32,000 bases of DNA. Origin: an archaeon (GTDB lineage Archaea; Iainarchaeota; Iainarchaeia; Iainarchaeales; 1-14-0-10-31-34). The notes under the pieces are model-generated. The model was not told the DNA's origin. It made no database searches and saw nothing but the letters and a program-made list of their open reading frames with translations. The DNA lies in the NCBI GenBank assembly GCA_024277355.1, contig JAJRVL010000002.1, positions 1 to 32,000 on the forward strand, read 5' to 3'. Shown one piece after another: positions 14,937 to 32,000 of this stretch (position 1 is its first letter; each line of letters begins with the position of its first letter). Made by a program: the position numbers and the translations under genes.

Positions 14937-16187
14937 CTACATTTTATTGAAGTCAAGTTTTTTTCCCACTGCTTCCAGAACTAAATCCTTGTTGCTGTAA
15001 TATTTGTTCATTACTTCTCCTACTTTGTTTACGTCATTTATTTTTTTTTCTATCATCCATTCAAGGATTGTTTTTCTTTCTTCTAAATCTTTAGTTATTT
15101 CCTGTTCGGTTAATCCTGTGTGTAAATTTAATTCTCCGTAAAATTTTGTTGGTTCATCTATTTTATCCCAGGTGTCTGTTCTTGGGCTCCATCTGTAAAT
15201 TGTGTTAATTGAAATGCTTCCTTCGTGGCTTCCTGTGTCTATTTCGCTTATTTCCATTGTTCTTCTTTTGTTTGTTTTTCTGTCTCTGTATTGAACTAAA
15301 ACTAAATGTAATGCTTCAACTTCTAATGCAGGAATTTCAATTGGCGGTTCAGTTAATCTTCTGACTAACTGCATTCCTGAATCGGCATGCATTGTTGAAT
15401 AAACTGAATGTCCTGTATGCATTGCTTCAAATAATACTTCTGCTTCTTTTCTTTGCCTCATTTCTCCTAAAATTATTCTGTCTGGACGCATTCTTAATGC
15501 AGACATCATTAAGTCAAACATGCTTATTTCTCCTACGCCTTCTGGGTTAGGGTTTCTTGTTGTTAATGGAACCCAGTTCCATTTTAAGTTTTCAGGAAGA
15601 ACTAGTTCTCTTACATCTTCTATTGTAATTATTCTGTGGTAATTTGGAATCATTGCACATAAAGTGTTTAGTGCAGATGTTTTTCCTGAGGCGGTTGAAC
15701 CTGCTACCATTAAATTCATTTCATAATGCAGTGCCATCCACAAAAAGGCAGCCATTTCTGAGTTCATTGTGTGTTTTTCAGGAGAAATAAAGTCTGTTAT
15801 AGTCCAGGGTCTTCTTGAAAATTTTCTTATTGTAATTGTATTGCCTAAAGATGAAACAGGAAATAATGTTGCATTAACTCTGTCGCCTGTAATTAAATGT
15901 GCGTCAAGAATTGGATTTAAGTTTGTTATTTCTCTTCCGATTTTTCTTGCAATTTGTGCAGCATAATTTTCAATTAATTCTTCTGATTCAACATTAATGT
16001 TTGTTTTAAGCCAGCCAAATTCTCTGTGATACACTGCAATAGGTGTCTTAGATGAATTAATTGTAATTTCTTCTAATAAGTCATCTTTAATTAATACTTC
16101 TAATTCTCCCATTCCATACATTTCATGCAGTAAAATTCCTGCAAGTTTTGTTGTTGTAGATTTTTCATTTTCAGGAAAATATTTCAT
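14937..16187 (-). CDS. FlaI/TadA/VirB11-family type IV filament assembly ATPase (core as delimited by the first ATG)
   Basis: Walker A GSTASGKTS, Walker B/Asp box RPDRIILGEMR, His box GHSVYSTMHA. The true N-terminus almost certainly lies upstream (see feature 16188-16448 and the finding). Confidence 0.9.
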   Translation of the reverse strand: MKYFPENEKSTTTKLAGILLHEMYGMGELEVLIKDDLLEEITINSSKTPIAVYHREFGWLKTNINVESEELIENYAAQIARKIGREITNLNPILDAHLITGDRVNATLFPVSSLGNTITIRKFSRRPWTITDFISPEKHTMNSEMAAFLWMALHYEMNLMVAGSTASGKTSALNTLCAMIPNYHRIITIEDVRELVLPENLKWNWVPLTTRNPNPEGVGEISMFDLMMSALRMRPDRIILGEMRQRKEAEVLFEAMHTGHSVYSTMHADSGMQLVRRLTEPPIEIPALEVEALHLVLVQYRDRKTNKRRTMEISEIDTGSHEGSISINTIYRWSPRTDTWDKIDEPTKFYGELNLHTGLTEQEITKDLEERKTILEWMIEKKINDVNKVGEVMNKYYSNKDLVLEAVGKKLDFNKM

Positions 16188-16448
16188 TAAAGTTTTATTT
16201 ACTATTTGTATAAATTTTTGTTTTAATTTTAAGTTTTCTTCTTCTGAGTCAATTGAAACACTTTTTGCAATTTCGTCTTTTATTTCTTCAAGGAATTTTT
16301 TTGTTGAATAGTCTGCTTTGTCAAATTCAAGGAAATATAAAGGGCGTTTTTCTTTTTCTATTGTTTTTATTTTAACTGTTGCATTTGATTCTTCTTTTAT
16401 TTCGTATGTGTTTATAGTTTTAGTTGCTTTAATTAATTTTTTTTTTCT
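16188..16448 (-). other. 87 in-frame sense codons upstream of the ATPase ATG with no ATG/GTG/TTG; probable N-terminal domain of the ATPase
   Basis: My manual translation reads RKKKLIKATKTINTYEIKEESNATVKIKTIEKEKRPLYFLEFDKADYSTKKFLEEIKDEIAKSVSIDSEEENLKLKQKFIQIVNKTL, running directly into MKYFPENEK. An in-frame TGA sits at 16449-16451. The frame is -1 relative to ORF 16433-16660 across the A10 run at 16437-16446. Confidence 0.65.
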
Positions 16449-16660
16449 TCAGGAATTTCCTGTTCAAGTCTAATAAAAGGTTTAGATAAAACATTTGCGG
16501 GATAAATTACATTTAATATTCCTGTTTTTTCCATTACTTTTGCTGTTAATTCAACTTTGTTTTTTTCCCAGTTTAATTGTTTTGATATTTGTTCAATTGA
16601 AAGCTTTTTTTCGTCTTTAAGCAGTTCAACCATTTCACTTATTTTTGTTTTTAGTATCAT
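16433..16660 (-). CDS. small winged-helix-like protein, or the N-terminal module of the ATPase if the frames are joined
   Basis: 75 aa: MILKTKISEMVELLKDEKKLSIEQISKQLNWEKNKVELTAKVMEKTGILNVIY. This helix-turn-helix-like pattern is my inference and is not verified. The ORF ends inside the A10 run (GAA GAA AAA AAA AAT TAA). Confidence 0.55.
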   Translation of the reverse strand: MILKTKISEMVELLKDEKKLSIEQISKQLNWEKNKVELTAKVMEKTGILNVIYPANVLSKPFIRLEQEIPEEKKN

Positions 16661-16702
16661 TTTTTTCCCTTCAGCAATAATACTGTTTTTTTATTAATAA
16701 AT

Positions 16703-17569
16703 CTAACTAAACTGTTTTAGTTCCATTAATGAATTGGAATTTAAGTCTGTTTGAATGTAATTTAAGTCAATGTCTGCATAAAGCTTTAAGCTTGAATTAA
16801 AGTCAATTGCAGGCATAATTGATTTAAATGAAAGATTAATTTTATTTTGGTTGATTGTTTCATTTTCAATTAACATTGCATTATTTTTTCCTTTAAAAGT
16901 CCCAATATTAATTTTAATTTTGTCGTCTCCGTCAGCTGAAAAAATTATTTCTATTTTGTTTTTTAAAGTTGAATCCATTAATAATATTTCATGTTTTTCG
17001 TTTAATGCATTTCCATCAATATAATTAAAGTTTACAATTAAATCAGGGTTTAATGCATTTAATGGTCTTGAAACAGAAACCGAACTTCCTGAAACAGTTA
17101 AATTTAAATCCATTGAAGTCATGTTTGTGTCTCCTAAAGCATAAAAGAAAACTGAATTTTTGTTTGGAGTAAAATCATATTCGTAAACTAGTTTATTGCT
17201 GAATTTTAATGGAATATTTTGGTTTAATCTGTCAACATTAATTTTAATTGAAGAATTATTTATGGCAGAATAACTTGTTTCAGCAAACTCTTTCATTTTT
17301 ATGATTCTCTGCATTTTATTGAAATCTGAAGGAATTATTTCATTAAAAGTTATTTCAAGATTATTTCCTTTATTTACTTTAATGGAAGTTCCTAAAATTT
17401 TGTTTAAGTCAAAACTTAAATCATCTTTAATAAATTCCATTTTAGAATATTTTTTTATTTCTCCTGATGAATAATTTCTTGAATTAACATTTTCTAAATA
17501 AAACATTGAAAATAAAAGCATTGAAGAAAGTAAAAGAATTGCACTAAAGCTTATTACATACCCTTTCAT
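16703..17569 (-). CDS. pilin-like/pilus-associated protein with prepilin-type N-terminus (288 aa)
   Basis: MKG|YVISFSAILLLSSMLLFSMF followed by an Asn/Ser/Ile-rich beta-type domain. Its start overlaps the upstream stop (ATGA at 17566-17569). I recognise no family. Confidence 0.6.
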   Translation of the reverse strand: MKGYVISFSAILLLSSMLLFSMFYLENVNSRNYSSGEIKKYSKMEFIKDDLSFDLNKILGTSIKVNKGNNLEITFNEIIPSDFNKMQRIIKMKEFAETSYSAINNSSIKINVDRLNQNIPLKFSNKLVYEYDFTPNKNSVFFYALGDTNMTSMDLNLTVSGSSVSVSRPLNALNPDLIVNFNYIDGNALNEKHEILLMDSTLKNKIEIIFSADGDDKIKINIGTFKGKNNAMLIENETINQNKINLSFKSIMPAIDFNSSLKLYADIDLNYIQTDLNSNSLMELKQFS

Positions 17570-17982
17570 TTTTTCACCTTAAACCAGGCTTTTAATTCAG
17601 CCCAATAAAATTTTTCTCCATAAAAAAAACTTCTTTTAGTTGAAATTTCAGTTAAAGCATTTTTTTTGCATCCTTTTTTTGAAGTAGTATTTAATGCACT
17701 TGAATTATTATCATAATCATATATATTTAATTCAAAACACAAATTTTTTGTTGTTTTATTTAAGTATTTTGAGATTTCTTTGTTTTTGTTTTCTTTTACT
17801 GCTTCTTCAAATTTCCCGCTTTTTTCTAATACAGTTAAAACATCCTCTGAAATTAATGCTAATTTAGTTTCATTTAATGAACTGAATTTGCTTTCAGCAA
17901 AATTTCCGCTTATTGCTACAAGCAATGCAAAAGAAATAATTAATGCAATTACTGCATCAATTGAAATAATAAACCCTTTCAT
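17566..17982 (-). CDS. minor pilin-like protein with class III signal peptide (138 aa)
   Basis: MKG|FIISIDAVIALIISFALLVAISG. It shares an ATGA start/stop overlap with the gene on each side. Confidence 0.65.
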   Translation of the reverse strand: MKGFIISIDAVIALIISFALLVAISGNFAESKFSSLNETKLALISEDVLTVLEKSGKFEEAVKENKNKEISKYLNKTTKNLCFELNIYDYDNNSSALNTTSKKGCKKNALTEISTKRSFFYGEKFYWAELKAWFKVKK

Positions 17983-18482
17983 TTAAACACTCCGAAAATA
18001 AATTTTCTTTCTTTTTCATTTAACAAAACATATCTTTCAATTACAATTGTTTTGTTTTCAGCTGAAGGAAAAACTCCGAATTGTTTTAATGGTTGGTCGT
18101 TCATTGAAGTTACTTTAAAATAAAAATCGTATTTTTGTAAACCTAAAATTTCTTTTATTTCATTGTATTTAGCTGCATTTAAGTCAATTAATTTATTTAC
18201 TTTATTTTCATCTAAAATATTTCTTTCTTTTGCTAAGCCAATTGAATTAATGTTTAAGTCATTTAATGTTTCCCAGGAATTTGGCTGGCCTGAAGTCGAA
18301 ATTAAAATTTGAGATGCATTAACTGCTTTTTCCTGCATTTCAAAATAATATTCTTCTTCATTAAGTGAATTCTGAATTAAACCAAAAGATGAAAATGAAA
18401 TAACTAAAATAAAAATTAAAGCAGTAAAAGAAACAATAAAATCAGTGGTAAAAACCTGCCCTTTACAGTTCTTCAATTTCAA
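17979..18482 (-). CDS. minor pilin-like protein with class III signal peptide (167 aa)
   Basis: MKLKNCKG|QVFTTDFIVSFTALIFILVISFSSFGLI. Confidence 0.65.
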   Translation of the reverse strand: MKLKNCKGQVFTTDFIVSFTALIFILVISFSSFGLIQNSLNEEEYYFEMQEKAVNASQILISTSGQPNSWETLNDLNINSIGLAKERNILDENKVNKLIDLNAAKYNEIKEILGLQKYDFYFKVTSMNDQPLKQFGVFPSAENKTIVIERYVLLNEKERKFIFGVFK

Positions 18483-18506
18483 TCACTCCCTTTATGTTTT
18501 CTATTC

Positions 18507-18974
18507 TTATTTCATTTGCATTAACTTTTGAAATAAAAATAATTTTTTTGTTAAAAGTGAAGTTGAAATAAACTGGCCTTGTCTGAATTTTATTTTAACG
18601 GAATTTTCTTCAAATTCAATTTCAAAATCATAATTTTTTGTTATTATTGTTTTGCTTCCTTCTCCTGAAATATAAATGCCGTTAATGTTTCTTGCAATTT
18701 TTTCGCTTAAGGTTTTTGCTTTGATTTTTTCTGAATTAAAATCAATGTTTTTTTTTTGTTCAACTGAAACTGCAACAACTAAAGAAAACATTAAGAAGAG
18801 CAAAACAAGAGTTATTACAAATTCAGCTGAAATCTGCCCTCGCGGTTGCGTCCGCGAGTAACGCGTGCTATCTGCGATAGCACTGATTTTATTTCCGCTT
18901 TCGAGCGGGAGAACCGAGGCACGATTTCGCTGTTGCTCAATCCTGCTGTCATACTTTTTTGTTTTTTTTTTCAT
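18507..18974 (-). CDS. minor pilin-like protein with an atypically long, GC-rich leader (155 aa as drawn)
   Basis: The pilin-type motif PRG|QISAEFVITLVLLFLMFSLVVAVSV starts only at residue ~45. The only in-frame canonical start is the ATG at 18974. The leader codons are GC-rich and atypical for the window. Confidence 0.6.
   Translation of the reverse strand: MKKKTKKYDSRIEQQRNRASVLPLESGNKISAIADSTRYSRTQPRGQISAEFVITLVLLFLMFSLVVAVSVEQKKNIDFNSEKIKAKTLSEKIARNINGIYISGEGSKTIITKNYDFEIEFEENSVKIKFRQGQFISTSLLTKKLFLFQKLMQMK
18839..18908. other. three tandem GC-rich hairpins (candidate structured RNA / cis-regulatory element)
   Basis: CTCGCGG-ttgcgt-CCGCGAG (18839-18858), GTGCTATC-tgc-GATAGCAC (18865-18883), CCGCT-ttcg-AGCGG (18895-18908). 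All stems are perfect and sit in a local GC-rich island (about 18836-18950) within an AT-rich background. The existence of the hairpins is certain; their function is unknown. Confidence 0.5.
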
Positions 18975-18979
18975 TTATT

Positions 18980-21163
18980 TCACGGAGTCCTTTGAACAAT
19001 ATTAATATCATCAACATAAAAGTAATCTCTTCTGCCGCTCATTCCGGCATCAAATGCAATTCTAAAGTTGTTTGACAAAGGATATGCATTTAAGTCAAAT
19101 GAATAAAAATGATAAGTGTTGTCTGAGTCAGCTGAAGTAAAAATTTTTATTATAGTCCAGATAAACCCGTTAGAAGAAATGCTAACTCTTGTGGTGTCTC
19201 CTGATTCAAATGAATTAACTTTAGCCCAAAATTCCAGTCTTGGATTAGTATACGCACTTAAATCAACTGCTCTTTCAGCATATCCTGTGCTTCTTCTTAA
19301 TCTTAAATGATTTGGAGAACTATAAGGGGTTCCTCCGCTTCTGATTGAACTGTCTCCTGAATGAGTCCATGCATTTAGCCATCCTGTTCCTGAACTCCAG
19401 CTTGTATCAGGGAAAGTGTGGAATGCAATTATTATTGGGCCAGTTGAATTAATTATTATGGTTCTGTTTTCATCACTGCTTCCTGTATTTGGAACTGAGT
19501 AATCATCAGTGCAGTTTACATCCCAATAATAAGTTCCGTTTGAAGCAAAAGTTTTAGTAAAACTTTGAGTAATTCCTTCAGTTATTGAATTGTCTGTTTG
19601 GTCTATTATTCCATTAATAATCAATTCACAAAAATTAATTCCTGAATCAACATCATTTACCGTATAGTCAAACTGAACACTAAAACTGTTTGAAGTATAA
19701 CCTGTTGCAGGGCTTTCAAGCATTATTGTTGGCGGAGTGCTGTCTATTGTATAATAAGTTGAAGTAGTATAAGTGCTTCCGTCGCTAAATTCAAATGTAA
19801 TTCTAAAGTATTCTCCGTCATTATTAACTATTTCATCAAATCTTAATTCATTTCCTCCGCTAAAAGAAGTTGACGCATTAATTGTAAAATCTGTTACATT
19901 AATCCATTCTCCTGCATTTGCTGTTCCGTTCCAATAATCAGTTCCATCAAATCTTACTCTTTCTATAATAGCTGAATCCTGATCTGTTTCATTCCAGTCC
20001 CATACAATAATTCTTGAAATTGTAAGGCTTGTATTAATACTGGTGTTTTCTATTGTCCAGTTTCTTAATCTGTCTCCACCTCCATTAAATGACGCAGTAC
20101 TCCATGAGAAATTAAAGTTGTCTGACATATTGCTGACAGTAACATTTAATGAAATAAAATCTGAATTAATTCCATCTGAAGCAGTAACAGTTCCTGTGTC
20201 ACTGTTTGAACCCAAGGGAACATCAATAGTAACTGTAATTTGCTGGCAAGTATTTCCTGTTAAAGAATTAATTGTTGGAATTGCCTGAACCCAATCTCCT
20301 GCGTCTCCATTAGATGAAGTAAAAACAATATTAGTTAATGCAGTTGAAGTTGTATTGCATACTTGAAAGTTATTTGAATCTGAATAACCTGAATCAATTG
20401 AAGGACTCCATAAATCAGGAAAAATCATTAAAGGCTGGTTGCTTTCTCCGACAATTACTTCTAAAGTTAAAGGAACAATTATTTGTTTTGCTCCGTCAAT
20501 TGTATTTACATCAAAAATTAATTCGCCTGAATAATTTCCTACAGCAAATAAATTAGAAGTAAAATTTAAATCAATTCCAGTGTTTGAGTCAGCAGGAACA
20601 ACAAAAGAATTACTGCTTAATTGCAAAGTAACATTAGCTGAAGTCCAGACATAACTAACTGAAACACTTGCGTTTCCGCTTGTATTATTTATTACTTTAA
20701 TATTTTCTATTGCACTTGTATTCTGTGCTATAGTTGAATAAATACTTCCTTTGTCTGTTTCAATTTGAATATCTCCAATTAAAACATAACCTTCATAAGA
20801 AGTAATCCAAATCCAATGGCCCCCTGATTCAGTTGGAATGCTTCCTGTTACTTCAACTTGTGATTCAGAAATTACATCTGTTCCATTAATGTTTAGTCTT
20901 ATTGTTTTGTCTGAAATTGAACTTTTGTTTTCATCTATTCCTGATGGAATTGAAATAAAAATTTGTTTTTTTGTTCCAGGGCCAGAAACGAAAACTTCGT
21001 TAGCTGTACTTGCAAGTTTATTAACTGTATTTTGTGCTTCAGAATTTGCTTTAGCATAATTAATTGAAGTTATTTCATTGTTTGATACAGAAATAATTAA
21101 TCCAAGTACTACCATTGAAACTGCAAGAATAATTAATAATTCAACTGACGCCTGCCCTTTCAT
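18980..21163 (-). CDS. large pilin-like surface protein / candidate tip adhesin (727 aa) with class III signal peptide
   Basis: MKG|QASVELLIILAVSMVVLGLII, then a Ser/Thr/Asn/Gly-rich beta-type sequence. It includes an Ig-like segment (DSTPPTIMLESPATGYTSNSFSVQFDYTVNDVDSGINFCEL) and a C-terminal jelly-roll-like segment (LEFWAKVNSFESGDTTRVSISSNG...DYFYVDDINIV). I counted about two dozen N-x-S/T sequons by hand. Confidence 0.75.
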   Translation of the reverse strand: MKGQASVELLIILAVSMVVLGLIISVSNNEITSINYAKANSEAQNTVNKLASTANEVFVSGPGTKKQIFISIPSGIDENKSSISDKTIRLNINGTDVISESQVEVTGSIPTESGGHWIWITSYEGYVLIGDIQIETDKGSIYSTIAQNTSAIENIKVINNTSGNASVSVSYVWTSANVTLQLSSNSFVVPADSNTGIDLNFTSNLFAVGNYSGELIFDVNTIDGAKQIIVPLTLEVIVGESNQPLMIFPDLWSPSIDSGYSDSNNFQVCNTTSTALTNIVFTSSNGDAGDWVQAIPTINSLTGNTCQQITVTIDVPLGSNSDTGTVTASDGINSDFISLNVTVSNMSDNFNFSWSTASFNGGGDRLRNWTIENTSINTSLTISRIIVWDWNETDQDSAIIERVRFDGTDYWNGTANAGEWINVTDFTINASTSFSGGNELRFDEIVNNDGEYFRITFEFSDGSTYTTSTYYTIDSTPPTIMLESPATGYTSNSFSVQFDYTVNDVDSGINFCELIINGIIDQTDNSITEGITQSFTKTFASNGTYYWDVNCTDDYSVPNTGSSDENRTIIINSTGPIIIAFHTFPDTSWSSGTGWLNAWTHSGDSSIRSGGTPYSSPNHLRLRRSTGYAERAVDLSAYTNPRLEFWAKVNSFESGDTTRVSISSNGFIWTIIKIFTSADSDNTYHFYSFDLNAYPLSNNFRIAFDAGMSGRRDYFYVDDINIVQRTP

Positions 21164-21213
21164 TTTAAACCATAATTATAACAGAAAACTCTTTATTATA
21201 CTTTTTCAGTGAT

Positions 21214-21435
21214 TTAATAAAGAGTACTTAATACTTTTTTTGCTTTGGAATAAGTCCAGAAAGTTGCACCTAAAGCACACATTGAAACAAAATAAAAGAC
21301 AACAGCTGAGAATTCATATCCTGCAATTTGTGCTAAAATTCCTTCAAGAAAAGTTAAAATTGAAAAACTTATAAGTAATGCTCCGCTTAAAAGAAAAAAA
21401 GCAACTTTTATTCCTTGTTGTAATACACTATCCAT
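21214..21435 (-). CDS. small membrane protein, two predicted TM helices (73 aa)
   Basis: Hydrophobic stretches VAFFLLSGALLISFSILTFL and AVVFYFVSMCALGATFW. It lies 9 nt downstream of the KaiC-like gene on the same strand. Confidence 0.5.
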   Translation of the reverse strand: MDSVLQQGIKVAFFLLSGALLISFSILTFLEGILAQIAGYEFSAVVFYFVSMCALGATFWTYSKAKKVLSTLY

Positions 21436-21444
21436 AAAACCAAC

Positions 21445-22440
21445 TCAAAATATTTCTATGTCTGCATAAATTTTTATGCCTTCCTTTTCAAAATTTAATG
21501 CACAAACCTTGTTTGTGTGTTTGGTTCCGCGCATTTTAAGTATTTCAAGTGAATGAACTCTTACATCTTTTTCTTCTTTTTTTTCATAATATAATGAAAT
21601 TACTGCATCAACTAAAAATCCCACTGAACCTTTTGCTGTTTCAGCTTCTTTTGGAGACATTTCGCTTATAATTATTGAAGTACAGTTCCATTTCCTTAAT
21701 AACTCAAAAAATTTCAAAATGTTTTCTCTTTGCTGGTATTCGTCTCTGAATAATAAAGAATAAGATGTAATTGAATCAATTACTAATCTTTTGGCTCCCA
21801 TTTGATTTATTGCATCTCTTATTGGCCCGCCACCCTGATCTAATAATCTTCCAACCTGATGCGGTTTGTATTCAAGAACTCTGAATAAACCTTTTTTTTC
21901 TAAGTCTTCAAAATCCCAGCCATATTCTGCGTTATGCCTGTAATATGATTCTTTGCTTTCTTCAAAGCTGATTAATATTCCTGGTTCATTGTATTTTACG
22001 GCTCCGTAATATAAAAACTGTAATCCAAAAGTAGTTTTTCCTGTTCCTGCACTTCCTGCAACTAAAACAGTTGAATTTTTTTCTATGCCTCCTTCAATTA
22101 ATTCATCAAAACCAAAAATGCCTGAAGGAATTCTTTCTAATTGGTTTAATTTTTTTACTGGTTTTTTTGGTTCATTGAATTCGTTTGTTTTTTCTTCAGT
22201 TTTTATTTCTTTAATTGATTTGTCTTTTTCTGTTTTTGATTCAGTTGTTTCTAATTCTTTTTTTGTTTCTTCATTTAATGTTTTAATTGGTTTTTCTTCT
22301 TTTTTTGTTAGTTCTTTTTTTGAAGGGATTTTTGTTTCAAGTTCAGCAATGCTTGGTTTTTCTTTTATTTCTTTTTCTGACTTAATTTTATTTTTTTTTA
22401 AGTCAAGATTGCTTTCAATTACAACTTTTTTTTTTTGCAT
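21445..22440 (-). CDS. KaiC/FlaH-like RecA-superfamily ATPase with a ~105-aa Lys/Glu/Thr-rich N-terminal extension
   Basis: The C-terminal ~225 aa carry GIFGFDELIEGGI, Walker A GSAGTGKT, the KaiC-type ISFEES, Walker B RLVIDSITS and LKMRGTKH. The N-terminus is low-complexity (KKELTKKEEKPIKTLNEETKKELETTESKTEKDK). It is a paralogue of 9027-9770. Confidence 0.85.
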   Translation of the reverse strand: MQKKKVVIESNLDLKKNKIKSEKEIKEKPSIAELETKIPSKKELTKKEEKPIKTLNEETKKELETTESKTEKDKSIKEIKTEEKTNEFNEPKKPVKKLNQLERIPSGIFGFDELIEGGIEKNSTVLVAGSAGTGKTTFGLQFLYYGAVKYNEPGILISFEESKESYYRHNAEYGWDFEDLEKKGLFRVLEYKPHQVGRLLDQGGGPIRDAINQMGAKRLVIDSITSYSLLFRDEYQQRENILKFFELLRKWNCTSIIISEMSPKEAETAKGSVGFLVDAVISLYYEKKEEKDVRVHSLEILKMRGTKHTNKVCALNFEKEGIKIYADIEIF

Positions 22441-22612
22441 TATTCTTCACTTTTTCCTTTAATAAAAAGAGTATTATTCTTTAAATAACTGTTTGTTTTT
22501 GCGTCTAAACAAAAAAAGACAACTTTTTTTTCAGATAAAAAAACAGCATGACTGAACAAAGTGAAGTCGTGCATCGTGCTTAAACGGTGAAACGTTTAAA
22601 AAAAAGAAAAAG

Positions 22613-22635
22613 AAAAAAGGCAGGGTGCCTTTTTT
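22613..22635 (-). terminator. hairpin plus T-run directly after the stop of the 119-aa membrane protein gene
   Basis: AAAAAAGGCA-ggg-TGCCTTTTTT. On the minus-strand RNA the stem is followed by a long U-rich tract. Confidence 0.5.
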
Positions 22636-22994
22636 TAAGATCTCATTGCAAGTTTATAGATTGCGACTACTGCAACAATTACTGCTGCTGGAGCTACAAA
22701 TACTGCGATATTTCCGAAAATGTTTGATAAGACTGTTCCTAATGGGTCGACAACTGAGTCAATTTCTCTAAATGCACTTATTGCGCCTGTTGCAAGTAAT
22801 GCAATAGCTGCAATTAAGAATGGAGTTGTTTCTTTGTCTTTAATATTTAACAATCCAACTAAAATTCCTAAAATGATTAAAACCAAAGGAACCCAGCCGG
22901 CAAATGCGCCTAAATAATTTACTGCAAAACCAGCAATTACTGCGATTACTACTCCTAGAATAAATGCATATTCTCCTATTTGCTCTAATTCCAT
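22635..22994 (-). CDS. small Ala/Val/Gly-rich integral membrane protein (119 aa, ~4 TM)
   Basis: Continuous hydrophobic helices. A strong SD (GGAGGG plus a 6-nt spacer) precedes the ATG, and the gene has its own terminator hairpin. I recognise no family. Confidence 0.65.
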   Translation of the reverse strand: MELEQIGEYAFILGVVIAVIAGFAVNYLGAFAGWVPLVLIILGILVGLLNIKDKETTPFLIAAIALLATGAISAFREIDSVVDPLGTVLSNIFGNIAVFVAPAAVIVAVVAIYKLAMRS

Positions 22995-27786: not shown

Positions 27787-28682
27787 CTGGAAAAGGTTTT
27801 GGATATTCTTATACTAATACAAGAGTAAGAGTAATGAAATCAAAATTAATTGATTCAACTGAATACCCAAAATTAATGAAAATGAGTTTAGACCAGATAG
27901 CCCGTTTTTTAGGAGAAAGCGAATACAAAAAAGAAATAGAAGAATTAGGTGCAGTATTTGAAGAAGCAAATTTAATTGAATATGCAGTAAACAGAAACCT
28001 GGCAAACTCATTTAAAAAAATACTGTCTTTTTCTTTGAAAGATTCAAGAAAATCAGTTTTAGTTTTCCTGAAAAAATATGATATATGGAACATTAAAACA
28101 ATTTTAAGAGGCAAACAATCAAATGAAAACCCTGAAGAAATAATTCAAAACTTAATTCCTGCAGGAGAATTTTCAGAGGAATTTTTAACTGAAGTAATAA
28201 AAAAATCTAATTCAGTTGAAGAAGCAGTTGAATTTTTCAAAAAAACTTCTTATTATGGAATAATGAAAAAACATTTATCAAATTTAACTGAATTAGAAGA
28301 TGAATTAGATATTAATTATTTTAATGAATTAATTGAAAGTTCTTCAGGAAAAGTAAAAAACTTAATGATTCAGCAGGCAGTATATCTTGATGCATTAAAT
28401 GAAGCAAGAGCAAAAGAAACAAAAATTTCAATGAAAAACATTATTTCAACAAAAAAAAGAAAAAAAATTGTAGTTGAAAATTTAGAAGAAGCAAGAGTTG
28501 AATTTAAAAAAGATATTTCGGCTAAAGGAAAAAAATTAGTTCATGAATTTAAAAGAGATTCTTCTCCAGTAATAGGTTATTTTATCGCAAAAGAAAATGA
28601 AGCAAATAATTTAAGGATTATTACAAGAGGAAAACAATCGAATTTGCCTTTAGATTTAATTGAAAAACAAATGGTGTTTTAA
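27783..28682 (+). CDS. atpC: A1Ao ATP synthase subunit C (V-type d homologue)
   Basis: GYSYTNTRVRVMKSKLI N-terminus typical of AtpC. ATGA overlap with atpE. At 299 aa it is somewhat shorter than usual. Confidence 0.85.
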   Translation: MTGKGFGYSYTNTRVRVMKSKLIDSTEYPKLMKMSLDQIARFLGESEYKKEIEELGAVFEEANLIEYAVNRNLANSFKKILSFSLKDSRKSVLVFLKKYDIWNIKTILRGKQSNENPEEIIQNLIPAGEFSEEFLTEVIKKSNSVEEAVEFFKKTSYYGIMKKHLSNLTELEDELDINYFNELIESSSGKVKNLMIQQAVYLDALNEARAKETKISMKNIISTKKRKKIVVENLEEARVEFKKDISAKGKKLVHEFKRDSSPVIGYFIAKENEANNLRIITRGKQSNLPLDLIEKQMVF

Positions 28683-30730: not shown

Positions 30731-32000
30731 ATGAAAGAATATAAAACAATTGAAAAAATTGCAGGACCATTAATTTTTGTAAAAAAAACTGATCCAATAG
30801 GTTATGGAGAATTAGTTAAAATAAAACTTGGAGACGGAACAATAAAAAATGGTCAAGTATTAGATACTTCAGATGATTTAGTTGTTGTACAGGTATTTGA
30901 AGGAACTTCGGCAATAGATAAACAGTCAACAGTTAAATTTACAGGAGATACAATTAAACTAAAAGTTTCAAAAGATTTATTAGGAAGAGTTTTATCAGGT
31001 TTAGGCAATCCATTAGATGGCGGACCACAAATAATTCCAGAAAAAGAACAGGATATTATTGGAGCAGCAATTAATCCTTATGCAAGAAGTTCTCCAAAAG
31101 ATTTTGTTCAAACAGGAATTTCAACTATTGACGGAATGAATACTTTAGTTAAAGGACAAAAACTGCCAATTTTTTCTGGTTCAGGTTTGCCTCATAATGA
31201 CATTGCATTGCAAATTGCAAGACAGGCAAAAGTTGAAGGAAATTTTGCTGTTGTTTTTGCTGCAATGGGAATAACAAATGAAGAAGCACAGCAATTCCAA
31301 AGAGATTTTGAACAAACAGGCGCATTAGAAAGAACAATTATGTTTTTGAATTTAGCTAATGATCCTGCAATTGAAAGACTTATTACTCCTAGAATGGCTT
31401 TAACTGCAGCAGAATATTTAGCTTATGAACACGACATGCATGTTTTAGTAATTTTAACTGATATGACAAATTATTGTGAAGCATTAAGAGAAATTGGAGC
31501 TGCAAGAGAAGAAGTTCCTGGAAGAAGAGGTTATCCAGGGTATATGTATACAGATTTAGCTTCAATTTATGAAAGAGCAGGATTAATTAAAGGAAAACAA
31601 GGTTCAGTAACTCAAATTCCAATTCTAACAATGCCAGGAGATGACATAACTCATCCAATTCCTGATTTAACTGGATATATCACTGAAGGACAAATTGTGT
31701 TGGGAAGAGATTTGCATATGAAAGGAATTTATCCTCCAATTGATGTTTTGCCTTGTTTGTCTAGATTAATGAATGCAGGAATTGGCAAAAAAAACACAAG
31801 AGATGACCATAAAGCAGTTTCAAATCAATGTTATGCAGGTTATGCTGAAGGAAGATCTTTAAGAGGATTAGTTGCAATTGTCGGAGAAGAAGCTTTAAGT
31901 GAAAGAGACAGAGGTTTCTTAAAATTTGCAGAACAATTTGAAGACAAATTTATCAGACAAGCAAAAAACGAAAACAGAACAATTTTTGATACTTTAAATT
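30731..32000 (+). CDS. atpB: A1Ao ATP synthase subunit B (3' end beyond the window)
   Basis: Not in the ORF track because it is truncated. Translation from the ATG at 30731 gives [19 protein letters not shown]...[15 protein letters not shown]...[45 protein letters not shown] lies upstream. Confidence 0.92.

Follow-up and report, generated by a model that had tools for sequence, protein, structure and literature searches.

In-frame modules of a dispersed hairpin repeat in the leader of an archaeal pilin-like gene: a probable cassette insertion related to tRNA and rRNA gene flanks

The first 32,000 nucleotides (nt) of contig JAJRVL010000002.1 (assembly GCA_024277355.1), here called the window, derive from an archaeon of the order Iainarchaeales and carry a GC-rich, hairpin-forming island inside the leader of a pilin-like gene (18507..18974, minus strand; 155-residue precursor). 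The island is composed of modules of a dispersed repeat family with copies at the ends of tRNA and rRNA genes, is read in an open frame, and is absent or replaced by other modules in orthologous genes. It is probably an in-frame insertion of a modular hairpin-repeat cassette, tolerated in a pilin leader that would be removed during maturation. Coordinates without a contig name refer to the window. The window's own genome (1.13 Mb, 96% complete) is designated G000, sister and related genomes G001-G008, public homologous proteins P00nn, and contigs C2, C7, C9 and C11.

Modules of the island and their copies at stable-RNA genes

In 100-nt windows over 18800-18949, GC contents of 0.47-0.53 were obtained, compared with 0.16-0.32 in the surroundings and 28% in the whole genome. 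The initial annotation had described three perfect stems in tandem within this patch, and these were confirmed: H1 (18839-18858; 7 bp, 6-nt loop TTGCGT), H2 (18865-18883; 8 bp, 3-nt loop TGC) and H3 (18895-18908; 5 bp of CCGCT with AGCGG, loop TTCG). For each strand, the three hairpins plus a long-range closing stem were predicted, with folding energies of -49.5 and -51.1 kcal/mol for the two strands (z -3.97 and -3.52; none of 200 shuffled sequences was as good). The closing stem makes use of the QISAEF codons of the host gene, which are likewise involved in an inverted repeat designated I7. The Rfam search proposed in the initial annotation was performed with Rfam 15 at gathering and at permissive thresholds and returned no family at the island (best score 18 bits, thresholds 39-114). 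No tRNA was found at the island by ARAGORN, in agreement with the earlier statement that the patch matches no tRNA architecture.

The whole insert comprises 111 nt (18840..18950, minus strand); its 37 codons specify precursor residues Asp9 to Arg45 and are flanked by TAT (Tyr8) and GGG (Gly-1). Its boundaries were set by module homology and by the empty sites of G002 (ATG AAA GGA↓CAG; the arrow marks the predicted cut) and P0010 (ATG AAG AAA GGA↓CAA), and the proximal boundary is more certain than the distal one. A 10-nt direct repeat, GCAAC[A/C]GCGA, flanking an 87-nt insert was considered and dropped, the boundaries 18840 and 18950 being set by homology within the family. Next to the Gly-1 codon lies the H1+H2 unit (18840..18885, plus strand; 46 nt), which consists of TCGCGG-TTGCGT-CCGCGA, GTAACGC, GTGCTATC-TGC-GATAGCAC and TG and has, on the plus strand, the same orientation as the copies 3' of tRNA genes. 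An AT-rich spacer, ATTTTATTT (18886..18894, plus strand), separates H2 from H3 and is the putative junction of the older and younger parts of the insert. The H3 hairpin (CCGCT-TTCG-AGCGG) together with GAGAACCGA (18895..18916, plus strand) also has copies directly after tRNA genes. The remaining 35 nt of the island are accounted for by the M module (18916..18950, minus strand; GACAGCAGGATTGAGCAACAGCGAAATCGTGCCTC; nhmmer E = 1.1e-8), which reads GACAGCAGGAYTGA...GAARTCGTGC on the mRNA strand and contains a small GATT...AATC stem around a conserved loop. The stem is GATT with AATC in the insert, GACT with AGTC in most copies, and TGCC with GGCA at C7:1148.

Further copies in the same genome and in relatives, a search for which had also been suggested, proved to be numerous at tRNA and rRNA flanks. 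Pieces of the island occur at ten other places in the 1.13 Mb of G000, and the copies read in context lie directly after tRNA genes or ahead of 23S rRNA. A copy of H1+H2 stands behind tRNA-Ile(UAU) in G000, and copies of 91-98% identity were located 1-2 nt 3' of tRNA-Ser, tRNA-Arg and tRNA-Ile. The 46-nt unit of the island recurs at 100% identity in G002, where it lies 5 nt 3' of tRNA-Gln, despite an identity of only 63% between the pilin proteins of G000 and G002. All tRNA-linked H1+H2 copies share the orientation of the window's plus strand. H3 plus GAGAACCGA was found directly 3' of tRNA-Ser(UGA) (C7:1148), tRNA-Leu(CAG) (C2:349541) and tRNA-Gly(GCC) (C11:68477). The M module precedes tRNA-Gly, tRNA-Ser, tRNA-Asn, tRNA-Thr, the tRNA-Ala of the rRNA operon and 23S rRNA, and in inverted form it follows other tRNAs. 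Nearly the full order of the island (H1, H2, H3-like, M') is present in the trailer of tRNA-Ser(UGA) of G002, with 78% identity over 110 nt. The island itself has no stable-RNA gene end within 0-5 nt and abuts the GGGCAG of the pilin gene instead.

The structure of the family is maintained by covariation. Across twelve copies of the H1+H2 stems, 98.8% of cells were paired and 5 of the 14 pairs had changed on both sides; none of the shuffled and slid controls came near these values. H1 occurs as TCGCGG with CCGCGA, TCTCGG with CCGAGA and AGCCGG with CCGGCT, and H2 as ...ATC with GAT..., ...ACT with AGT... and ...ATT with AAT..., with an invariant TTGCGT loop throughout. Copies of H1 include two G-U pairs that fit the tRNA-sense strand, which is antisense to the pilin mRNA. 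The constraint at the RNA level proposed in the initial annotation therefore holds across the copies of the family, and not as a conserved leader structure of the pilin gene. A covariance model of the 46-nt H1+H2 unit (R1) scored the unit of the island at 77.1 bits (E = 5.6e-15) and had matches in 24 of 121 sampled genomes of the order (14 of 62 genera), with 1-20 copies each.

Several other sites of the family were recorded. A solitary M-plus-hairpin module, ACAGCATGACTGAACAAAGTGAAGTCGTGCATCGTGCTTAAACGGTGAAACGTTTA (22543..22600, plus strand; nhmmer E = 1.2e-8), is intergenic and without an adjoining tRNA, and is 95% identical to the leader of tRNA-Gly(UCC); it lies between a KaiC-like gene and an open reading frame (ORF) at 22635..22994 and is followed by an A-run and the hairpin GGCAGGGTGCC. 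On the minus strand of C7, an M module and a GCGAAA-loop hairpin stand ahead of 23S rRNA (28380-28440), and the hairpin CAACAGTTTCGGCTGTTG and an H2-like hairpin, GCACTATCTTCGATAGCGC, stand after it (31466-31530). With M and hairpins at these flanks, the rRNA operon uses the module set of the tRNAs. Behind tRNA-Leu(GAG) (C7:8720-8790), an AT-rich hairpin is followed by a 17-nt copy of the tRNA 3' end (GAATCCTCCACTCTGCA) and then by an H1-like unit, an arrangement that looks like an insertion scar duplicating the tRNA end. An intergenic run of GC-rich hairpins (C2:130560-130660; e.g. CACCAGCCGAAACTGGTG) was noted near an M copy at 130483-130515, and only a spurious ORF of 100 codons covers it. 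Of the 41 tRNAs in G000, 15 are recognised only if an intron of 21-149 nt is allowed; ARAGORN finds 26 without the intron option. The interpretation of leader and trailer as one long, rRNA-like processing stem was set aside in favour of inverted module copies, each with local hairpins. A literature search on tRNA trailer hairpins in DPANN archaea gave nothing relevant.

Translation and variation of the leader

The host gene begins with ATG AAA AAA AAA ACA AAA AAG TAT (18951..18974, minus strand; MKKKTKKY), a Lys-rich N-terminus common to G001, G004, G005 and most public homologues. This ATG is the sole in-frame start; as had been claimed, neither ATG nor GTG nor TTG occurs in frame between 18974 and the QISAEF motif. 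Gly-1 and the mature N-terminus (18819..18839, minus strand; GGG↓CAG ATT TCA GCT GAA TTT, G↓QISAEF) mark the position at which the prepilin peptidase is predicted to cut, and every insert has this same proximal limit. The resulting leader, MKKKTKKYDSRIEQQRNRASVLPLESGNKISAIADSTRYSRTQPRG↓QISAEFVITLV..., is 46 residues long. The features of a class III signal peptide are present (RG↓QISAEFVITLVLLFLMFSLVVAVS, with Arg at -2, Gly at -1, Gln at +1 and Glu at +5). Downstream of the predicted cut site lies a hydrophobic helix of about 20 residues. A Pfam search with the protein gave no family at E <= 0.01, hence no curated pilin match. Two A24 prepilin peptidase genes (PF01478) were found in G000.

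The gene is the second in a run of pilin-like genes adjoining a PilB-type (T2SSE) ATPase gene (14937..16187, minus strand). Its four siblings in the operon have leaders of 3-8 residues (MKG↓Q, MKG↓Y, MKG↓F and MKLKNCKG↓Q); this agrees with the short leaders reported in the initial annotation, in which five siblings instead of four had been counted. Leaders of 3-7 residues were obtained for further pilin-like genes of G000 by a strict pattern screen, which a locus on C9 (see below) escaped. All long ORFs from 14937 to 22440 are on the minus strand, and only short plus-strand frames run across them.

The frame used by the gene contains no stop codon in any of the six inserts examined, and the other two sense frames contain 1-7 stops. 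The probability of an open frame after shuffling was 0.10 for G000, 0.016 for G004 and 0.007 for G001; these values leave aside the further one-in-three chance that the length is divisible by three, as it is in every insert. Neither an intron nor an untranslated leader would have to stay open, and the maintained frame thus indicates that the insert is translated and not spliced. Codon usage is unusual, as had been noticed: 18 of the 37 insert codons belong to types used less than 5 times per 1000 (types that make up 4.7% of all codons in G000), and five of the six Arg codons are CGN, compared with 7.7% genome-wide. One and the same M module is read in different frames, as AEQSECRAP or as SKANAVHR, in different inserts, and shared peptide stretches coincide with shared DNA modules. 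Different frames, rare codons and peptide similarity that follows the DNA together argue that an open frame was selected and not a peptide. Arg or Lys is kept at -2 beside Gly-1.

Orthologs of the gene are present in all nine genomes of the family, with mature parts 58-67% identical in five sister genomes. Leader lengths were compared across them as the initial annotation had advised, and proved to be short in some and 26-102 residues in others. The site is empty in G002 (MKG↓Q), G007 (MKG↓Q), G008 (MDLNA↓Q) and P0010 (MKKG↓Q), and all other relatives have GC-rich hairpin modules of differing content at the same position. The filled leaders comprise 27 residues in G003, 29 in G005, 46 in G000, 95 in G004 and at least 101 open codons in G001; those of public homologues have 26, 26, 32, 33, 52, 63, 99, 99 and 102 residues. 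Absence of the island, or variability without compensatory changes, had been named beforehand as counting against an RNA constraint at this gene, and the four empty sites and the other module sets elsewhere correspond to that outcome; such absence and replacement argue against a specific cis-regulatory RNA. The site is filled in independent assemblies from four public sources and is therefore not an assembly artefact.

Most filled orthologues open with MKKKTK..(Y/H)DSR, that is, with M (GACAGCAGG) directly after the Lys-rich start, and the modules at Gly-1 vary. Within the inserts, M invariably occupies the distal side and the hairpin the proximal side, the arrangement also seen in tRNA leaders. 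The loops of the hairpins abutting Gly-1 are usually of the GCGAAA, GCGGAA or ACGCAA type. The homologue nearest to G000 in the tree of mature parts, P0003, has an insert that ends ...CGGTTCTCCCGCTCGAAAGCGGGAAAGGG↓CAG. It reads ...CCGCTCGAAAGCGGGAAAGGG↓CAG without the 51-nt block containing H2 and H1; G000 shares the text and has in addition these 51 nt (17 codons, H2+H1) between GGAAA and GGG↓CAG. Because P0003 lacks this block, an older M+H3 block and a younger block nested beside the cleavage codon would be distinguished in G000.

Two observations concern individual orthologues. The leader region of G001 (C9:156-519, L023) contains a run of 11 N, so that the size of this insert, the longest of all at about 120 codons, is uncertain. 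The C-terminal two thirds of the mature pilins of G003 (L025) and P0006 are identical, and the leader and N-terminal helix differ, which suggests recombination, or chimeric assembly, at the 5' end of the pilin gene.

A second pilin-like gene with a long leader was found in G000 at C9:47701-48270 (plus strand). Its GC-rich leader of 32 residues, MKIFKRKCSAEQSECRAPSHPSGIGSRAKSRG↓QSSLIDL, contains an M-like piece and two hairpins with the loops GCGGAA and GCGAAA, and the gene starts at a TTG overlapping the end of an upstream pilin-like gene. In G001, G003 and G005 the orthologous leaders span 25-31 residues and contain other modules; in other genera (outgroups) they span 7-9 residues. Two censuses of G000 were performed, one of GC-rich BLAST copies of stable-RNA flanks and one of perfect GC-rich hairpins; in both, family copies inside ORFs were restricted to the island gene and C9:47701-48270. 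Two other in-ORF hairpins were rejected, C2:450534 as a chance hairpin and C2:130617 as lying in a spurious ORF over an intergenic GC-rich region. At nearly all filled sites of both loci the junction is ...CGCGAG(A)GGG↓CAG, which reads CTGCCC/TC(TC)GCG on the other strand.

Origin of the insert and alternative explanations

A cassette of the family flanking tRNA and rRNA genes would have been inserted into the pilin gene after the first codons and ahead of that for Gly-1, and modules would later have been gained and lost at this spot. For G000, an older M+H3 block followed by the nested 51-nt H2+H1 block next to GGG↓CAG is proposed. Class III leaders stay in the cytoplasm and are cut after Gly-1, with a usual length of 6-26 residues (PMC4471445). 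The insert may accordingly add 37 unselected residues to a cytoplasmic leader, and the prepilin peptidase, by cutting after Gly-1, would leave the mature pilin unchanged. The repeat may survive here and almost nowhere else in coding DNA because it lies upstream of Gly-1, in a leader that would be removed. The modules could have moved by recombination or gene conversion between copies, or by an enzyme targeting the acceptor-stem-like GGGC and GCCC ends. An inserted element was among the options of the initial annotation and is retained; its description as a remnant is not, since the copies are intact members of a living repeat family.

Several points weigh against a tolerated insertion. Cleavage would have to act on leaders of 46-100 residues, beyond the usual range of 6-26 (PMC4471445). 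No mobilising enzyme or transposase was found in searches of G000 for Y1 and TnpB: the Y1 transposase family (PF01797) had no match, and the same search matched 6 of 14 control genomes, and TnpB (PF07282) is absent from the 96% complete genome. Neither terminal inverted repeats nor target-site duplications, by which a miniature inverted-repeat transposable element (MITE) would be recognised, are present at AAGTAT/GACAGC...CCGCGA/GGGCAG. The H1+H2 copy within the pilin gene is perfect and matches one from another species exactly, which would fit a recent insertion or gene conversion and would equally fit selection on the copy. The tree of the mature part does not separate gains from precise losses. 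Every filled orthologue of both loci has a GC-rich hairpin immediately next to the Gly-1 codon, a regularity that could reflect function or targeting and not tolerance alone.

Targeted placement is a rather unlikely extension of the proposed insertion. Machinery of unknown nature would set cassettes against acceptor-stem-like GGGC.../...GCCC ends, and the prepilin GGGCAG (CTGCCC) would mimic the target. Targeting is suggested by the mirrored copies in tRNA leaders and trailers, by GGGCAG in two pilin genes and by the nesting at the boundary. If it occurs, pilin leaders would be a second specific landing site at which modules stack beside the cleavage codon. In a stronger version, the cassette would serve the cell as a portable signal for RNA ends or processing that tunes the output of the minor pilin.

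Control of the minor pilin by an exapted cis-acting RNA element on the mRNA strand, in the orientation of tRNA leaders, appears unlikely. Hairpins after the start codon could slow or block translation, or a cleavage or stability signal, read by the same machinery that acts on the cassette at tRNA and rRNA ends, could set pilin stoichiometry in the operon. The strong fold (z -3.97), the structural constraint on the repeat family, the hairpin at Gly-1 in all filled orthologues and at the second pilin locus, and the constant arrangement of M distal and hairpin proximal, as in tRNA leaders, are consistent with such a role. The close relatives G002 and P0010, however, do without an insert, and the inserts vary 25-fold in content and length. 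The closing stem was not kept in G001, whose two partner segments cannot pair. A cut within the ORF would part the start codon from the body of the gene, and the two G-U pairs of H1 place the RNA structure on the tRNA-sense strand, antisense to the mRNA. The earlier proposal of a cis-regulatory 5' structure specific to this pilin gene is thus unlikely, since the site is empty or replaced in orthologues and the closing stem is lost in G001.

A function of the leader as a protein, e.g. as a pro-peptide that delays processing or docks a cytoplasmic partner, is improbable. The frame is open over up to 100 codons and Arg or Lys is retained at -2, as such a function would have it. No peptide is conserved, however, outside stretches inherited along with a DNA module; a given module occurs in different reading frames, the codons are rare, and leaders of 3-4 residues work in relatives.

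Also improbable is an RNA transcribed from the plus strand, antisense to the pilin gene, that would act as a small RNA, antisense terminator or insulator. The orientation of all tRNA-linked H1+H2 copies and the G-U pairs suit this strand, on which a T-run (18955-18972) follows the cassette. That T-run is the Lys-rich start of the ORF, common to all relatives, and neither a gene or stable RNA upstream on the plus strand, nor evidence of a promoter, nor an Rfam match was found; the orthologous inserts, moreover, differ in content.

An archaeal bulge-helix-bulge mRNA intron, removed by the tRNA splicing endonuclease, was rejected as having a very low probability: G000 has many long tRNA introns with similar hairpins (in 15 of 41 tRNA genes, 21-149 nt) and two bulges, staggered between the opposite strands, interrupt the closing stem, but these are 1 nt in size and 6 bp apart instead of the required 3 nt and 4 bp, cutting at them would remove Gly-1 and Gln+1, all inserts are stop-free multiples of three, and the closing stem is missing in relatives.

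Comparison with known repeats and signal peptides

In-frame insertion of a hairpin repeat, the preferred explanation, has its nearest counterpart in Rickettsia palindromic elements (RPEs) and other intragenic MITE-type repeats, which sit in frame in protein genes (reviewed in PMC10969869). Both are short multi-copy hairpin repeats that enter a gene in frame without breaking it, add a tolerated peptide and differ in occupancy between related genomes. The modules of the island are dispersed in multiple copies, their hairpins are kept across copies, and the insert lies in frame with an empty site in relatives. The likeness is one of behaviour and not of family membership, and the host here is a DPANN archaeon. 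In contrast to the single RPE of about 150 bp, the modules are freely combined blocks of 46-57 nt. They are found chiefly at the very ends of tRNA and rRNA genes, and the coding inserts are confined to prepilin leaders that are predicted to be cleaved, at one codon boundary. No archaeal description of an RPE-type in-frame repeat insertion was found in the literature searched.

The repetitive extragenic palindromic (REP) sequences of proteobacteria, with the related bacterial interspersed mosaic elements (BIMEs) and REPINs, are GC-rich imperfect palindromes that form mosaics at gene ends, vary between strains and are mobilised by RAYT transposases of the Y1 HUH type. The family described here resembles them in its GC-rich imperfect palindromes with conserved loops or tags, its mosaics, its sites at gene ends and its variation between strains. 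It differs in that no Y1 transposase was found in G000 and in that its elements lie 0-5 nt from stable-RNA genes and can be intragenic. The GC clusters of yeast mitochondria are mobile GC-rich palindromes in AT-rich DNA, one of which is inserted in frame in var1. GC-rich palindromes in a very AT-rich genome and insertion in frame into a protein gene are common to both; the yeast clusters are organellar, without known relation to the present family, and have no link to tRNA ends or signal peptides.

The host protein corresponds to class III signal peptides (PMC4471445) in its leader, which carries positive charge and has a terminal Gly, and in the Gln at +1, the Glu at +5 and the hydrophobic helix; the genome also has genes for prepilin peptidases and a PilB-type ATPase. 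The usual length is 6-26 residues (PMC4471445); repeat DNA supplies the surplus in the leader of 46 residues here and in those of up to about 100 in relatives. Class III signal peptides are thus predicted to reach about 100 residues, several-fold above the textbook range, and leader removal by the prepilin peptidase is a plausible reason for their tolerance. The GC-rich structured patch is explained without a new regulatory RNA, and caution is advisable before each GC island of an AT-rich DPANN genome is called an RNA gene.

Compared with the cassette copies beside stable-RNA genes, those of the island lie inside a translated ORF, and this in-frame insertion into a prepilin leader is the new part. 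It links the hairpin cassettes of tRNA and rRNA ends and of tRNA introns in DPANN archaea to a datable insertion series in protein-coding DNA. The pilin site offers empty, single and nested states for comparison and provides material on the movement of the modules.

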